Below are positions 3,821 through 44,869 of a DNA stretch of 64,000 bases, one piece after another. Position numbers and translations under genes: made by a program. Numbering within the stretch: position 1 is the stretch's first letter; every line of letters starts with the position of its first letter. The stretch comes from Podospora anserina (taxonomy: Eukaryota). The DNA is taken from positions 6,324,001 to 6,388,000 of the forward strand of contig CM030332.1 of the NCBI GenBank assembly GCA_017654855.1, written 5' to 3'. The notes beneath the pieces were generated by a model. The model was not told the DNA's origin. It searched no databases and saw only the letters and a program-made list of their open reading frames with translations.

Positions 3821-3891
3821 GCATCAGTGGTTTAGTGGTAAAATCCATCGTTGCCATCGATGGGCCCCGTGTTCGATTCACGGCTGATGCA
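3821..3891 (+). tRNA. tRNA-Gly(GCC)
   Basis: Acceptor stem GCATCAG/CTGATGC-A, D-loop TAGTGGTA, anticodon arm CATCG-TTGCCAT-CGATG, T-loop GTTCGATT; T-run downstream (Pol III terminator). Confidence 0.97.
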
Positions 3892-17800: not shown

Positions 17801-20800
17801 TCCATGATCACATCACAAGTCTAGCCTGTTCTCAAGATTGCTTGAACACTTGCAGCTTATCTGCTACAGTTGCGCAATCGTATCGGTGCTCTCCCGTCCC
17901 GTCACTACCGGCGCCCAGACCTTCTAGAATGAAGTCGCTCCACCATGCTACCACCAGGGCATCTCCGGGAGGTCTGGAGACCGTTTCATGCCTCCGGACA
18001 GGAATGAAATCTCCAGATATTCAGAAGCCTCGATACGACTTCCCAAGTATGACTCTCTCGGGTCTTGATACAAATGTTTGTCGATCATGTGTTGAGTCCA
18101 AAAATGGCCATGTCCTGGGTTCCCCGCAAAAGGCTGTGCTCGGGAGTCTCAAGCCCCATCAATGCCCCCTCTCACAGCCAGTCGGGGTACTATGTACATG
18201 GTCAACCACTTTTTGCAACCAAGAAACAAGAATATCGTCTTGTCTGGACGAACGAATGCCACCGCTACCTTGGAGAGTTATGGGCTTCATGATGGCTTCG
18301 TTCATCGTGGGTTGCGCAAGTCGGCCGTGTCCACTTGCACAGTGGCCACTGGCTGTTGAAGGTGTTGGCTCCCTTTGCCAACCTCAAGATCTGCCTCTCA
18401 TTCGTCGCCATATATCGCCATATAACTCATAGCTGTACCAAGTGATGCAGTGCTGTCCTGCACACATCACCAAACCCCCACCGAGACACTCGATGGCCAG
18501 ACGACCCAGCTCCTTCGACGACGCCTATCTGCCTTCCATCCGGCGCTGTGTTGGCACAGTTCGCATGGATGGCTGGCCTGGGCGCGTAACACAACCCTCA
18601 AAGTTTTTCTTTCTATCAGGCCTGACCGCAAGATTTGGCCTTGTCGCACCTCAACCGTTGCCCAATCACAGTGGGAACTAACTTCACCCCGCCCCTCAAG
18701 GCTGTCACCATGACACCAAAAGAGAGTCGTGAAAGTGGCTCGCCATGAGACGCCCGTTCTTGATGCAGAGCAACCCAACGTCCAAGCACTCCACTGCCAG
18801 TGCCTTCTCGCAAGGCAGAAGGACCAGGGGGAATCATCACAAGTGTTGCTTTTTCGCACTTCACGCCGTTCTCGGCCATTCGCTTGTTGCGTACGCTGAT
18901 CACGCCTTCGGCAAGTTTTATCTTTGCTTTAGTTAATGACCGGTTCTCAAGAGGTCGAGACGAGCTGGAAACCTCTGGTTTAGCCCCGCCCAGACTTTCC
19001 TCCACCATGACTCAACTCCAAAGATCACAACTTCCTTACCAAAAGTCAACACATGACCCGCGATATCGGATCTTTTGTCTCGGTCCCTGCCAACACTAGA
19101 GGGCTGATGCGATAATACACTATGGAATCACCGGCACCAGCCGTTCATGTGTATGGAGATCCAACATCTCGGTCGCCGATAGGATGAATTGCTCTCGGCG
19201 ATATCATGGAAATCGCGTTGTCGTCAGCTGTTAAGCATCTCACGGGATCAAACCCGCTGCAGAATTCACATGCTGCTGCTGTTCCCGTCTCCGTGCGGCG
19301 GGTTTCTTACCGCGCGGCCCAGCGGCTGAGTGTCTTGTGTGATACCCGGTTGGGGGCGCTTGTGAGGCGGTCACAGCTAGCAGATCAGTCTTGTAGGTTG
19401 CTGATCTCGAAATCATTCCACATTTGCACATATTGCCATACCTACTCTTACGAGAGCCTTCCCCTGTAGGTTGCCTGGACAATAACCACCCGGTAACAAT
19501 CTAGAGATATTGTCGCGGGCGGCGCCGGGCTAAGTTTACCTGCTTCGGGTGCCTCGAATAACCGCCAAGGCTCAGATCCGACTTGCTCATCATCGTGATG
19601 CTCCACACCAACCGGGCTCTCTGGAAACACCATGATGGCCAAAGAAGCCTTTCCAAGGCGAAAGACGGGAGAGATCTAAGCTGAAGCTGAAGGGGGGGCT
19701 CCGCAACAATTATTGACTCGGCTGGCCTCGTCCGGCGACAAGAGTCACCACCTGCAAGACTGATCATCCCCTCGACCAAGACCTTCTATTCAGCTCTTTG
19801 CCCGGTACTTGGCTTGTCTTTGACAAGCCAATAACACTGCTCGGATTTCCCGAGGCCGGAGAGCAGCATCGTGAATGGGAGGGAGCTAAAAGATGGTGGT
19901 GAGTGGTAATTCAAAAGGTTTGAGTCAGCCACCGACCACGGAGACCGTGAGATGATGATGATATGGAATATTGCTCTTGGCTTTCCACAGGGTCCTCCTC
20001 CTCCTGCTCCTCCTGCTCCTCCTCGGCTTCGTCATAAATTTGAGGCTGAGTCTTTGTCAAACAAGTTATTGGGGAAAAACCCTTCCCAGTCTGGTGTTGT
20101 TGCTGTGTGGTTTGCTTGGGAAAATTGATGCCCCACATTTATCTCGGTGGTTCGGAACCTGTCATCGTTCATTCGCTCTCTCTCGGCCGAAGGATGACGA
20201 TCGCGGGGACGGGGATGGGTGAGGGACCCGGTGAACTACCGACCAGCTTTCACATCCACCATCAAGTTTCAAAAAAATAAAAAAATAAATAAAAAAGGCT
20301 TGCATTGCGGACTCCCCGATCGCGCTTTGTCTTGCCGAGGGAAATAGTACAATTCAAAAGGACACTGCCGCCTATTTTGGATGGAGGTTGGAGGAAAGAG
20401 AGCATGAGATGCGGTTCATCAAACAGGCACAGGCAACAAAAGTGTGGGGCCAAGGCAGCAGTGGGATTTGGGGGTTGGTTCCACTTTTGACCTCGTTCGT
20501 ACTGCAGAGCAACACCAGTTATGACCAGAAACTCCGTCGGGAAGATCGGGACAGGTTCAACTATGGGATCTCGGATGTGAGGCTGTTGTCTTGGTTGTAT
20601 GGGTAGCCAACGTGACAACTGGCCTCGACGAAGACCATGATGAACTACACACATGAGAAATAGGGCTGGAAACCGGAACCAAACTGGGAGGCGAATCACA
20701 GATAGGGGATTAGATATTACGAACTTGAGCCATCGGAGATTTGAGTCGAAGGGGAAGGTAGGTGATCATTTAGCAGCAGTTGTGGTACAAGCTAAGTGAG

Positions 20801-23800
20801 GCAACGCAAAAGGGCAGGTGAGCTACACACCATTACGGGCTTGGTCATCCAACCATCCTTCACGAAAAATCAGCAGTGGATTTTGCCCACATTTGCCCTT
20901 GAGCGTAGGATACGAAGAATGTGGCGGTTGAGAGCCTGTCATTCTCGCTCAATCTTTTAACCTTGATCCCTACCTACTTGGTTTCTGAGGGGATGGGTAT
21001 CTCATGTGATTTCAAGCTTTGAAACTCTCACGAGGGGCGCCGAGGGGGCGTTGAGTATGAGGATGGGAGGGGAAGGAAGGTAAGCCGAAACTTACCGGAG
21101 CTGCTGTTGGTGGAATTCTGGCCCGATCGATCGGAAAGCTCTTATTTTCTGGGTTTGGAAAGTGCGAGAGTTTGAACGCGGCGCAGTTGGCTTACGACAA
21201 TAGTGAGTGAAATTTCGAAGGTGAGGTGAGGGGGGTTAAGGTGAGGTGGGGGAATGGGCTTGCCGTGATTTGCCTCCGTCACTAGAGTGAAGTCACTTGT
21301 TCACTTCATTCATCACAGCTAGCTTATTGCCACATCGGAACCTTGCTTGTGATGTGGGATCTTGCCATTCGCGGCGTTGTGCACGTATCTGACCATGAAG
21401 GACACGATAGTCACACAGAGGACACATTGACCTGGGGTCAAGCTCGCATACGAGCTCGCATCTGATCGAGCCTTGCTGATGATGATAGCGGGAAGTTGTG
21501 AGGATTTCACTTTACACATGAGCAAGAGCCTCATTCGGTGCGGGCTATTTACTTCGTCACAGTCATACAGGTGGCCAGTCACTCGCTCGTGCATAGTTTT
21601 TCGTTCACTCAGTCATACAATCTGCCTTCATTCTGTGGCCATCATGTGTAGGCCTTTTGATCTGGCTTCACTTTCATTTCCCCCATATCTCAACTGCCAG
21701 GCATGATAATCACGCTCGAGATATGAGATGACAAGCAGGCAGACAGGCAACAAGGTGAGGCAAGGTGAAGCAAGCTCACCATGAGGCCTCACACAAAACC
21801 AGTCACATACCTCATGACGTTTTCAACAGCCTGCCTCAACCCGAGTACGATCACCCTCACACAGACTGCCTCACCTGCCTTGCCCGTCTTCCCGCTCTGT
21901 GTCCTCCACAACAAACATGCCGGTCGTTCACAACCCCAGCCCTGTGATAATCAACAGGTTACATACCTCTGGCCCCCTACATTGCCCTAGATCGTAGAAA
22001 CAGCTCGGCAAACATTCTTTACCTATTGGCTCCCGGTGGAATGACAGCACTCGACCAAGAAGTGATACCCATATCACCTCACACAAACTACCCAATGATA
22101 TGGTATGGTATCATGGTGCCACAAACAAACAAACAAACACTCTTTCCATTCGGCAAGAGTGTTATGTATGAGGAGGTCGTAGACAGATCGGCCGCCTTGC
22201 CGCTGCTGAGCCGTGGTGGAAACATGGGGGAGGCCATGTTCGTGACCCATACACACTTTACAAGCCGGCAAAGGTAGGGTCAGAGAGGCCAACCATGGGG
22301 GCCAAGGCTCGTCATTTAGATGGAAATGAGTGTGCTTTGTTGACCGTCAGTCTGAAGGCCATGTATGATGATGTGGTCATCATAAGGCTTTGCCAACAAG
22401 ACACATAGGCACGTAAGAGGGGTAGATTACTGCACTCTGATGAGAACAAGCCCGTGTTTGGATAAGTATCTAATATTGGAACTCAGAGCTTGTGAGGATG
22501 ATTCGGTGAAGCTCTGCTAGGGTGGAAACAAATCATGATGATTATGCCAGGTACCTTAGGTAGCTATGAATCATACCTGCCTCACTCACCCACATCCTCA
22601 CTTTGTAAGGGGTAGCTACCGGCAGGTGATCCCACAACTAGAATAAACATGTTATCAACCAAAGTACCTTGTGGCTGCTTAAAGTCATCGTGGATATGTT
22701 TACTCACTCATGCTTGATCTCCATGTTCTGCTTCCTTGCCCAAGTCATGAACGAGCAGCTATCATCATCAATCCGATGACCAAGAGTTTGATACTCAGGG
22801 TAAGTTCGGTCCATCGTAATAAACTTGCATGACATCCACACTTCAATGGAGGTGCACCAGACCCCAAAAGAAGTACACCGTTCTTGCTCGCCGTGACCAG
22901 CCAAGTAATGATCTCGTGCATATGCCCCCCTCACAAGGAACCGAAAGGGGTAGACCGACTCTCATTCTATCCGGCCAGCCAAAAGTGGAAAGATGCCTAA
23001 TGCAATGTTACAGATCATCACCCCCCAGACTTGAAACTGCAATAGTGACATTGTTTCGGGACAGTCTTCTCAACACGACATAATCCACAAAGTATACACC
23101 TAGTTACTCGACAATATTCCCCCCTGACCACGACACCTACCTTACCAGCCCAGAGTCATACCCCCCTATTAGTCTCTGCCAATTCACCAGCAACATGTAG
23201 ATACATCAAGGAGGGGTATCCGGCAAGTCATAACCCGCGAGCCCATACCTAGGTGCTCGAAATAGCTCCCCACGATCAGATACCTACCTACCAAGGTAAG
23301 ATGGAGACAAACACAAGCCCCCGGATGAGTCAAGCCTGTGTGGTCACAAACATTCGCCATCATCACAGTTACTCATGCTTGTATGACGCATACGGCGTAA
23401 TAAAAAAACACCTACCTATCGCGATTGAAAGTCGTGATCATTATTCACAAGACTTATCACTCCCAGCTGACTGCTGTTGGGTTGTTGGGCACCGACGGCG
23501 AGACTTGCTCCTTAATCACGAAAGCTTCAGGCAAAAAGTAGAGTCAAAACAACAATACAAGACGGGGGCGGGGGGGGGGGGACTTGACTTACGATTGACG
23601 ATGAATCATCCTGACAAGGAGTTACAATTGGGCAGCTCAAGGCCAACAAACACCAACCGTCATACCACATGGAGAAAATCTAGGACGGTGTCAGAACTCT
23701 AGTCGCCAACAATGTAACAATCATTGCCAGATAGGAGAACAGAACATATCCATTGAGCAAGGTAACTAACTACCGAGGATGTATACGAGCCTCCCAACCC

Positions 23801-24186: not shown

Positions 24187-26262
24187 CTAAGAGGCCATGT
24201 AGGTGGAGGCATCAATACCATCCTTGGGGAACTCACTAGTAAACAGTTAGCAGACAATTCCGGAAGTTGACTAGGAAGGTATTACGTACGGAAGAGCGAC
24301 CTCGAAGCGTTTCTCAATGGCTTGGAGGACCTCCTTGTCCTGCTCGGTGGTCACGAAGGAGATGGCGAGACCCTTGGTACCGAAACGTCCAGCACGACCG
24401 ACACGGTGGAGGTAGGAATCGGCATCAGCGGGCATGTCGTAGTTGATAGCGAGGTTGATCCGCTCGATATCGATACCACGGCCGAAAACGTCGGTGGCCA
24501 CGCAGATACGCTTGTTGAACTCCTTGAACTCTTTGTATCTCTTGATACGCTCCTCTTGGCTGACACCGGAGTGGACGGCAATCGAAGGGAAGTTGCACTC
24601 GCGGAGGAGCTTATCCAGCTCGGTAGCGCGCAGGGTGCTTTTGACGAAGATGATGACCTGGTTGAACTGGAGGTCGTCCAGGAGCTCGTTCAGCTTACGG
24701 TTCTTCTCCCTCTCTTCAAGGGCAAGATAGTACTGCTGCAAGCCGTGGAGCGTCAACTTGGTGTCCTCATCGACGTAGTGCTCGGTGGGGTTCTGCATGA
24801 ACTTCCGGCAAATGGGCTTGATCTCGTCGGACAAAGTGGCCGAAAACATCATCACCTGCTTCTGCTGAGGAGTAGCACGGAAGATCTCCTGCACGTCACG
24901 GCGCATGTCTGATAGATTATTAGCGGTTTGGCCCAAAAAAAACCCCAAATGATAATCGCCTTACCAATCTGATCAAGCATCTTGTCGCACTCATCGAGGA
25001 CGAACATTCTGACACTGCCAAGACGGAGGTGCTTGTCGCGGACAAGGGCGTTCAAGCGGCCAGGTGTGCCGACAATGATGTGGGGGTGGGTATCCTTGTT
25101 CTTGAGTATCTCGGCATCCTTCTGGATAGGAGTACCACCGTAGAAGACGCCGGTCTTGATGTCGGGCATGTACTTGCTGAAGCGGTTGTACTCGTTGCGA
25201 ATCTGGAAGGCCAGCTCACGGGTGTGGCACATAACCAACACGGAGCACTCGCCGGCAACAGGCTCGACCTGCTGGAGGGTCGTGAGGACGAAGACGGCAG
25301 TCTTACCGAGACCGGACTTGGCCTGGCAGATGATGTCACCACCAAGCATAGCCTGGGGAATGGTGGTCTGTTGAACTGTAGTCGGGCATCGGATTAGAAC
25401 TGGATACGCAAATTTGGACAGAACGATGTGTGGGAAGGTTCATCAGAAGCCCGTCCATCGTCGCAGCAAAGACATGTCGACCACTCCTCCTCCTACACCA
25501 CCAATCTTCTCCTTCCAAACCAAGGTGTGCCCCGAGACCAGCTGAGCGAGATGCGGAAAACGCGACCACCTGTCACGGCAACGACGTTCCCACGCATCCG
25601 CGAAAACCACGACCAAAGGCCAATGGATGATGGAGACGGGGGAACAAGGTCCCTTTGTGAAACCTCCCGAAGGAGTTCGAGGTATGGAGCTCGAGTGAGC
25701 AATGAAGCAACCTTGTCGCTTTCCAAGCGCCGACTCAACCCAAGCGCGACAGCCGAGGCCATCTATGAGAGGTTTCTCTTGCGCAAGAGCTCATTGGATT
25801 TTCCAGAAGCATGGTTTTGCCGCTCGGGGGCGACCCCGAGCGGTCTGACGGTCGCATGGTGAAGAGTCACCAGGTGCTTGCGCAAAGCGCGTCGACGGCG
25901 CGCCAACCAATAGCTCCATCCGATGATAGTCTTGTTTCAAAAATTGCTTTGCGTAGCTTTGCCTTTGCTTGCGAGATGGACGGACCCGTGATGATAGGAA
26001 GGAATAACGGGATGCTGGGGATGAGATTTGGTCACTAACCCTCCGAGGGATGTTCGAAACCGCAATCGGCAATCGCACGGAGAAGTTCAGGCTTCAACAG
26101 AAAGTCGCGGAAACCAGTCGAGTGAATACCGACATAGGAACCCTTCTTGTCGACATTTTGGGCAGCAGCGGCATCCGCCTTCTTGCCGTTGGAAGCGGGA
26201 GCGGTGGTCTCTTGGTTGAGCTCGTCGTCGGAGTAGTCGATGAGATCCTCCTCAGCAGACAT
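24187..26262 (-). CDS. SUB2: DECD-box RNA helicase Sub2/UAP56; exons 26262-26040, 25375-24965, 24908-24290, 24235-24187
   Basis: Motifs [36 protein letters not shown] and [10 protein letters not shown]. All three introns have GT..AG ends and restore the frame. Confidence 0.97.
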
Positions 26263-26797
26263 GTTGGCTAGTTATTTGGCGAAAACTGGAAACGGTCGCA
26301 AGGCTTGTCGTGAAAACAAAAGAGGCGATGGCGCCAAAAGTCGTCAGGAAGAGTCGCGTCTGGTGAAGAAAATAAATCACCGAGTGGAAAGTCGCAAGGT
26401 GAGAAGAAAAAGGCGCGCGTTGGTGATGAATACCAAGACTATCAGATGGCGAGGGGTTGGCGCGTTGATGAGAAGAGGATGTCAGAAAAGGAAGGGAGGG
26501 AGCAGAAAGGCGAAAATAAGGTTGGAGGTCAAGCAGCACGCACAGCCTCAAAACCTGACCGCAATCAGCTCTAACCACGAGTGGCTTAGCCAGAGCCGGA
26601 AAGGTGCCGCTTGGCCCGTGCACTGGGCGCTGGTGGGGCCAACGGAACCGTCAGAGCACAGGCCACCCTGTGACAGTCCGAATTCACTTCACTTGGCCTT
26701 CTTGGCTGGGCAAGCTTTTTCTGTGTCAGTTGACATTCACAAACAATCGTGATAAAAAGAAAAGACAACTCGACCTTCATTCCAATTTCCTTTCATT

Positions 26798-27271
26798 ATG
26801 GCAAAGGCAAAAAATGGTGGCGGCGGGGTGCAAAACAAGGCCATCTATTCTCGACTATCATTTCTTCAGCAAGCAGCCGTTTTCCTCTCGACAGCAACTC
26901 TGGACGGTGATGGTTCCAATATCTCAGAGCTCAACCAGGATCAAAACCCACCACTTCAAGGTGCTGGAAGACGTCTAGCCACTGACTTGCGCGCTGTGTC
27001 CCTGAAGAGCCGGATTCGATTGAACCCAGCAGTAAAGCAGAGCATCTGCAAGTTCTGTGACTCGGTCCTCATTGACGGGGAGTCTTGCACTTCGGGAATC
27101 GAGAACAAGAGTAAGGGAGGTAGGAAGCCATGGGCCGATATTTTGGTTCGCAAGTGCCATGCTTGCGGCAGGGAGAGAAGGTATCCAGTGTGCACCAAGA
27201 GGACAAAGAGAAAGACAGAGAGGCCGGTTGCGACCCCCGATGAACCAGACATGATGGACCAAACTGGATGA
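26798..27271 (+). CDS. RPR2: RNase P/MRP protein subunit, Rpr2/Rpp21/Snm1 family
   Basis: SRLSFLQQAA helix, then KQSICKFCDSVLI and CHACGRERRYP zinc-binding CxxC pairs. Confidence 0.85.
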   Translation: MAKAKNGGGGVQNKAIYSRLSFLQQAAVFLSTATLDGDGSNISELNQDQNPPLQGAGRRLATDLRAVSLKSRIRLNPAVKQSICKFCDSVLIDGESCTSGIENKSKGGRKPWADILVRKCHACGRERRYPVCTKRTKRKTERPVATPDEPDMMDQTG

Positions 27272-39847: not shown

Positions 39848-39960
39848 GGGCGTGTGGCTCAGTTGGTAGAGCGTTCGCTTAGCATACTCAAGTCCCTTGA
39901 CTAAATATCAGGGATCCCATTGTATGCGAAAGGTCCTGGGTTCGATTCCCAGCTCGTCCA
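39848..39960 (+). tRNA. tRNA-Ala(AGC) with a 40-nt intron (39885-39924)
   Basis: Acceptor GGGCGTG/CTCGTCC-A with the G3-U70 Ala determinant. The anticodon arm TTCGC-TTAGCA[intron]T-GCGAA has the intron at the canonical 37/38 position. T-loop GTTCGATT. Confidence 0.95.
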
Positions 39961-44798: not shown

Positions 44799-44869
44799 TG
44801 CATCAGCCGTGAATCGAACACGGGGCCCATCGATGGCAACGATGGATTTTACCACTAAACCACTGATGC
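44799..44869 (-). tRNA. tRNA-Gly(GCC), identical to the copy at 3821-3891
   Basis: Exact reverse complement of 3821-3891; downstream T-run on the minus strand (A-run at 44766-44779). Confidence 0.97.

Follow-up and report, generated by a model that had tools for sequence, protein, structure and literature searches.

A conserved closing stem and weak splice signals frame a lineage-specific interior in the long first intron of fungal SUB2

Sub2/UAP56 is a central ATPase of splicing and mRNA export. In the window, as the whole 64,000-nt stretch of Podospora anserina DNA analysed here is called, the SUB2/UAP56 gene lies on the minus strand, as do all features of its first intron given below; the protein encoded by exon 3 matches yeast Sub2 with an E value of 1e-100. 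Coding exon 1 (26040..26262; 74 codons and one base) specifies the acidic N-terminal domain and the beginning of the helicase core, and is followed by a phase 1 intron of 664 nt (25376..26039) that terminates in the 3' splice site TACAG (25376..25380). The ends of this intron are confirmed by the 664-nt joint 26040/25375, present in the assembled contigs of two of four public runs. Intron 1 is single-copy: the 36-Mb genome yields one match, the intron itself, which rules out a second copy or a transposon origin, and searches of viral and prokaryote collections returned no matches. No Rfam family, riboswitches, RNase P/MRP, SRP and snRNAs included, matches the intron at gathering or E-value thresholds, the top local matches reaching 17 bits against thresholds of 45-77, and the whole window gives three tRNAs only. 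These tRNA genes are found at 3821-3891 (+), 44799-44869 (-) and 39848-39960 (+); two are identical, with anticodon GCC, and one tRNA carries a long insertion within its anticodon loop. A gene divergent from SUB2 and ~500 nt upstream of it (26756-27271, +) codes for a protein with an RNase P Rpr2/Rpp21/SNM1 domain (E 1e-22).

Orthologous introns were collected with a pattern spanning the exon 1/intron junction, which returned at least 118 metagenome loci; at least 77 of these include the intron in full (loci L082-L119 comprise 5' ends only). The pattern demanded a GT intron at that position and misses orthologs with other motif residues. Among the matches listed, and with the window included, there are 78 introns, 65 of them distinct, and 54 of these measure 408-706 nt; the 11 short ones, which have other exon signatures and are without the clamp core described below, were left out of the counts. 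The orthologs are related to one another, some being near-identical, and the counts overstate the number of independent events. In the orthologs intron 1 is 408-706 nt long, compared with 46-90 nt for the later SUB2 introns.

The splice signals of intron 1 depart from consensus in a constant way. The donor is the non-consensus GTTAGT (26034..26039), whose TAG (26037-26035) becomes an in-frame stop if the intron is retained. GTYAGT is the donor of all 54 long introns among the matches listed, whereas of the 61 controls, the later SUB2 introns from the same loci, 2 have a pyrimidine at +3 (one control call, in L052, is probably wrong). The branch point TCTAAT (25393..25398), with its branch A at 25394 inferred from the consensus, carries a non-consensus T at -3; TCTRAY recurs in 53 of the 54 long introns among the matches listed, against T at -3 in 6 of 48 controls, these being the controls for which a branch point was called (13 others had none). 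Pairing of the donor with the branch point was rejected, no covariation between the two being apparent by eye. An in-frame stop lies within four codons of the start of intron 1 in 78 of 81 cases among the matches listed, and an equally early stop is present in 8 of 46 copies of intron 2, a control of the same phase. The position of the stop varies with the donor: among the matches listed, all 63 distinct GTTAG starts have TAG at the first intron-encoded codon, and for GTCAG starts the stop is TAA two codons later, at codon 3, in 15 of 18. A donor-sequestering hairpin of the form GUYA/URAC was rejected, as the sequence found with GTCAGT is TAAC or TAAT in 11 cases and TGAC in none; the TRA at +9 is better explained as a stop codon than as a donor-pairing strand. 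Some 20-30 nt past the donor, a CCCC(A)AGC motif with pyrimidines before it (26022-26013 in the window, -) recurs in many orthologs; it resembles a decoy 3' splice site, and no joint uses it.

The two ends of the intron are joined by a long-range closing stem, the clamp, which the first-pass annotation had drawn around the hairpins considered below and which is well supported. Its 5' arm (25960..25994, core GUCCGUCCAUC at 25985-25975) pairs with its 3' arm (25440..25474, core GAUGGACGGGC at 25459-25449) with a P of 0.999 for the 11-bp core. The core retains 11 of 11 pairs in all nine close introns, and among the matches listed both 11-nt arms are present with two mismatches or fewer in 48 of the 54 distinct long introns; L002 is, by alignment, a 49th clamp-bearing long intron. 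The clamp begins ~45-55 nt past the donor and stops ~45-55 nt before the branch point. Comparison of sequences thus shows a long intron with a near-invariant stem, a weak donor and branch point, and a stop within four codons.

Inside the clamp, a dense domain had been drawn at 25664..25919, and all the motifs named for it are in place on the minus strand of intron 1. They comprise an inner helix, AUGGAGCU (25919-25912) with AGCUCCAU (25691-25684), said to enclose three hairpins, and a further hairpin with a UUCG loop. The enclosure is not reproduced: in the predicted fold of the whole intron only hairpin 1 (GGUGA-cucu-UCACC, 25871-25858; P 0.95) and the 10-bp hairpin 2 (25843-25820; P 0.995) persist and are predicted to form, and hairpin 3 (CUCUU-gcgc-AAGAG, 25789-25776) has a P of 0.002. 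The inner helix attains P 0.96 in the isolated 256-nt piece but 0.015 in the whole intron; forcing it alone would cost 1.3 kcal/mol, and forcing all five drawn elements 11.5. The UUCG hairpin (CUCC-UUCG-GGAG, 25675-25664) had been taken for an extra-stable tetraloop, and its sequence fits, but the 4-bp register has a P of 0.03 when the piece is folded alone and 0.0 in the intron, where it loses to a hairpin at 25666-25659/25653-25646 (P 0.94) and GGAG pairs downstream instead; the loop differs in eight of eight orthologs. UUGCGCAA is present twice in the flagged stretch, and in the model the two copies pair together as an ordinary helix (P 0.89 alone, 0.47 in the intron), whereas an alternative or kissing pairing had been suggested. 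This helix excludes hairpin 3, which has a P of 0.0 in the piece folded alone.

The flagged stretch folds better than shuffled sequence. Its z is -3.58, with none of 200 shuffles as good, and repeat scoring gave -3.5 and -4.8 (30 and 60 shuffles), values to be read with the caveat that the borders of the stretch were chosen by eye; z -3.5 is reached by 2 of the 91 256-nt tiles of the window. The 10-bp hairpin at 25843-25820 is the source of much of this signal, z being -2.4 after its removal. Perfect hairpins of at least 10 bp number two in the 64 kb, hairpin 2 among them, and five shuffled windows gave 0 or 1; the sole other perfect 10-bp hairpin of the window is at 19809-19831. Another part of the window, 21701-21956 (-), forms an extended imperfect hairpin with over 60 pairs, many of them G-U (z -5.0, 0/200 shuffles), in a region without a long ORF and with no Rfam match.

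A lack of conservation of the hairpins in related genera had been named in advance as a ground for refutation, and on this ground the drawn domain fails. Intron 1 of the window was aligned with eight orthologs (three near-identical) by MAFFT, at a mean column identity of 62%, a depth and identity at which a poorly aligned conserved fold could escape detection. In this alignment the 32 drawn pairs survive in 54.8% of cells, which is no different from shuffles (270 of 500 score as high), and no covariation of the drawn pairs was found. The inner helix keeps 1-4 of its 8 pairs in orthologs and is unsupported; hairpin 2 keeps 4-7 of 10, being perfect in this genome only; hairpin 1 retains 5 of 5 pairs in two of the eight orthologs; and hairpin 3 keeps 1-3 of 5, a GAGYUYUGGCGCAAGC-like sequence being partly conserved there and the stem not. 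The C-G-closed UUCG tetraloop and the doubled UUGCGCAA are, against the eight orthologs, found in this genome only. Even L002, the ortholog nearest to the window (68% identity over the 3' two thirds), keeps 4/8 pairs of the inner helix and 2/5, 4/10 and 3/5 of hairpins 1, 2 and 3. Across the eight orthologs, identity to the window is 87% in the clamp arms and 45% in hairpin 2, and along the inner helix's 5' arm it is 32%; within the flagged stretch it is 58% in the 3' half and 43% in the 5' half. The homologue of the stretch folds like shuffles in the eight orthologs (z -1.04 to +1.35), and the region of hairpins 1 and 2 scores +0.9 to -1.2 there versus -4.6 in this genome. As far as sequence comparison goes, the flagged hairpins are mostly peculiar to this genome, and the drawn domain is no conserved feature. 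The cluster serves as a caution that the conserved part may lie elsewhere than at a strong single-genome folding score with a UUCG loop.

It is conceivable, though very improbable, that the fold was drawn correctly and has a function confined to this genus, as a recent protein-binding site or a small ncRNA core with possible UUGCGCAA kissing. The z of -3.6 and the standing of hairpin 2 as one of two such hairpins in 64 kb are consistent with this, and an inner helix with P 0.96 in isolation and a cost of 1.3 kcal/mol in the intron could form during transcription. The lack of conservation even in L002, the ordinary helix of the UUGCGCAA copies that in the model excludes hairpin 3, and the absence of an Rfam match and of a box C all argue the other way. 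A recent function of hairpin 2 itself is possible, a single-genome z of -3.5 to -4.8 being uncommon. An intronic snoRNA of either class was ruled out by box tests and by the absent Rfam match. Intron 1 contains no exact box C (RUGAUGA); one CUGA and one box C with a single mismatch lie near 25446, outside the clamp interior, and their position is not conserved. Of the hairpin-H box-hairpin-ACA arrangement expected for the H/ACA class, an ANANNA is present at 25817, 3' of hairpin 2, but neither is kept across orthologs.

A different arrangement of the interior is given by the RNAalifold consensus. It consists of a candidate inner helix, P2, formed by CCAAUGAGC (25797-25789) with GCUCAGCUGG (25547-25538), and a candidate subdomain, GAGUCGG (25736-25730) / CCGUCUC (25639-25633), with small hairpins inside it at 25720-25706 and 25700-25689; both are incompatible with the drawn inner helix. 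P2 is retained at 7-8 of 8 pairs in eight of nine introns, and two of its pairs are changed on both sides in the alignment. In cross-validation it was recovered from three of three training subsets, and held-out sequences kept 7/8, 7/8, 5/8 and 7/8 pairs, and 7/7 three times, with 7/7 in the window. It dominates the ensemble in three of eight introns, and in this genome the minimum-energy fold of 25800-25536 is closed by it. These results speak for a functional RNA domain conserved in the window lineage as well, closed by P2, multi-branched and including the 25736-25633 subdomain, that would act as a protein-binding platform tuning retention. Clear interior elements in other lineages agree with such a domain, as does the subdomain alignment (z -3.6, 0/60 shuffles; picked after the fact, and with a single-sequence z of -0.7 here). 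The domain is possible but rather doubtful, given that in the whole intron of this genome P2 has a P of 0.0 and forcing it would cost 11 kcal/mol. Against column shuffles the alignment scores z -0.7 for the whole interior (9/40 shuffles) and -1.0 for the P2 domain, so that the interior of the window lineage as a whole is not significant. The cross-validated pairs are overall at expectation (z -0.6 and +0.7; the window alone +2.5, on 14 cells), and an unbiased helix scan gives a longest conserved long-range run of 5 pairs, against 4-7 in the null, with P2 not above it. The pairing figure of 87.8% for the consensus fold is circular, the structure having been derived from the same alignment. P2 is suggestive as a lead only, and both P2 and the subdomain are candidates.

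Interiors of intron 1 divide into separate similarity groups, that of the window having nine members. The 40 of 54 long-intron interiors that were scored have a mean z of -1.4, with z at or below -2 in 15 of the 40; the tiles of the window, an imperfect control, have a mean of -0.14, with 6 of 91 at or below -2. In a group of 14 introns (L011, L012, L013, L020, L028, L030, L034, L039, L043, L048, L058, L062, L065 and L071) the interior alignment reaches z -18.7 (0/40 shuffles). This comes from a long inner stem whose strands resemble GGAAGUCUCU/AGAGACUUCC, at intron positions ~95-285 and with compensatory changes; the stem is visible in the individual folds of 13 introns, its cross-validation z is +2.5 and +1.1, and it is the best target for studying interior function. 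A 5-bp hairpin with a 7-nt loop of the UUUCGAC type is common to several groups and present at L012:1341-1375(-), L030:1679-1713(+), L016:1312-1346(-), L033:1184-1218(-) and others. All 55 of its 55 cells are paired, and both sides of one pair differ in 4 of the 11 sequences, which had been selected by a pattern that presupposes the stem. A covariance model of this hairpin detects six further loci at E <=0.005 among 81 sources; against the intron of the window its best score is 6.9 bits (E 0.13), which indicates that the hairpin is absent here. It is a candidate protein-binding site. A GUGGCG...CCGCYAC-type hairpin at intron positions ~110-140 is common to L026, L036, L042, L046, L072, L076 and L078 (no null comparison). 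No 6- or 7-mer is common to most interiors, the best being present in 16 and 9 of 37. Interiors can carry conserved structure, but of a lineage-specific kind. The earlier proposal that the interior has a function of its own keeps some support in general, from the conserved stems of other lineages, the 15 of 40 interiors with z at or below -2 and the better conservation of the 3' half of the flagged stretch; it holds for those other lineages, and not in the form drawn for this genome.

Transcript evidence comes from assembled contigs of four runs from four studies, the RNA status of which was guessed and in which rare forms are dropped. Contigs of all four runs cover intron 1 joined to both exons, with introns 2 and 3 skipped or uncovered; in run X1, one contig reads through intron 1 yet skips introns 2 and 3. 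Runs X15 and X18 contain both the spliced joint and intron 1, the intron contig having a depth of 198.5 and 139.8 versus 415.9 and 481.7 for the spliced joint, figures that do not amount to a retention rate. Retained introns of 54-56 nt may be lost as small bubbles in assembly, and the contigs give a hint of selective retention of intron 1. A poison exon or internal splice site was rejected, as no joint lies inside intron 1 in the four runs, whose contigs drop rare forms. Position 25654, in the loop of the hairpin 25666-25646, has A for T (+ strand) in four of four runs, which corresponds to A to U in the transcript, and six other runs carry all sampled words of the reference; this is probably a strain difference and not A-to-I editing.

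The explanation that fits best, and which we hold to be reasonably likely, is that intron 1 is a regulated intron-retention element, probably tuning the level of Sub2, with the flagged hairpins as its lineage-specific interior. The weak signals would make splicing slow and place it in competition with export. The clamp would draw donor and branch point near enough for splicing and would be the likely control point, a conserved duplex that Sub2/TREX or a spliceosomal factor could bind or remodel. Transcripts exported unspliced would be non-productive because of the immediate in-frame stop, and Sub2 output might thereby be set by how abundant or active the export machinery is, in a feedback such as that at yeast YRA1. 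The interior would have to fold on itself to avoid competing with the clamp or the splice sites, and its shape would turn over between lineages; the flagged hairpins, the 10-bp one above all, would be local products of this turnover and no conserved binding platform.

A bolder proposal, tentative and on the unlikely side, sees in the intron an RNA switch found across Pezizomycotina and not described before. Sub2/TREX or the early spliceosome would read an invariant duplex that gates a deliberately weak intron, lineage-specific inner domains would bind regulators, and the donor-site stop would end the retained form, leading to decay or to a 75-residue N-terminal peptide. If true, the inner domains would be P2 and the subdomain here, and elsewhere the 15-20-bp inner stem and the hairpin with the UUUCGAC-type loop. 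The N-terminal region of human UAP56 is described, in the available part of PMC13391367, as binding TREX-2-like complexes; the 75-residue peptide, if made, would carry this region and could compete with the full helicase.

In its geometry the clamp recalls the zipper stems of long S. cerevisiae introns, e.g. RPS17B, which are defined in the available part of Rangan et al. (2025; PMC12350175) as stems of at least 6 bp, no closer than 10 nt to the donor and no closer than 20 nt to the branch point, with a linker total of 42-85 nt, and which are only 20-30% conserved. Like a zipper stem, the clamp joins the post-donor region to the pre-branch-point region of a long intron, and its 11-bp core, extended to 25994-25960/25474-25440, and its 45 nt + 45 nt to the outermost predicted pair agree with the length and spacing of that definition. 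However, its linker is 90 nt when counted as far as the outermost predicted pair, or 114 nt if the core is taken (the median core linker being 109 nt over 53 introns among the matches listed, a few of them mis-located by the pattern), and its core is near-invariant across distant fungi and tied to conserved weak splice signals. The clamp is not classed as a zipper stem because its linker exceeds the limit and its conservation is far higher. The likeness in geometry, the clamp P of 0.999 and the turnover of the interior would also suit a constitutive zipper merely aiding the splicing of a long intron, with the weak signals and the stop as passengers, retention as a leak and a neutral interior. 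Such a zipper is unlikely, for it leaves unexplained the length of 408-706 nt against 46-90 nt in later introns, the non-consensus donor and branch point, the compensating stop at codon 3, and a near-invariant core where yeast zipper stems are 20-30% conserved (PMC12350175).

A role as cis-regulators or autoregulatory sites has been suggested for intron structures in Pezizomycotina by Li and Breaker (2017; PMC5640933) and by Gao et al. (2021; PMC8216456), and the main texts of these two papers, whose supplementary candidate lists could name the gene, contain no mention of SUB2, UAP56 or helicase. The available part of PMC13490950 holds nothing on a fungal SUB2 intron element, and no description of such an element was found in the literature covered, from which subscription papers are mostly absent; nor was a description found there of the control of Sub2 level in filamentous fungi. 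Precedents for the preferred reading, a regulated intron-retention element, are provided by yeast YRA1 and human DDX39B. Conserved suboptimal splice signals are a feature of the YRA1 intron, and SUB2 intron 1 has this YRA1-type feature as well. In S. cerevisiae, YRA1 has an autoregulatory intron, its pre-mRNA being shunted to export and decay through several modular intronic elements, according to the available text of PMC2864733, and SUB2 intron 1 likewise belongs to the gene of an mRNA-export (TREX) factor. For human DDX39B/DDX39A, the accessible account (PMC11317157) describes splicing of intron 6 that depends on DDX39B, with positive feedback and a C-rich pyrimidine tract. As proposed for SUB2, the human ortholog thus governs how an intron of its own transcript is spliced, but the intron is another one, the feedback is positive, and no RNA structure enters the described account. 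The precedents differ in sign, negative at YRA1 and positive for DDX39B intron 6, and either might apply by analogy. An invariant duplex, fixed weak signals and a donor-embedded stop would together make SUB2 intron 1 a small testable system for export-splicing feedback, and its stem offers a case far more conserved than the zipper stems of yeast.
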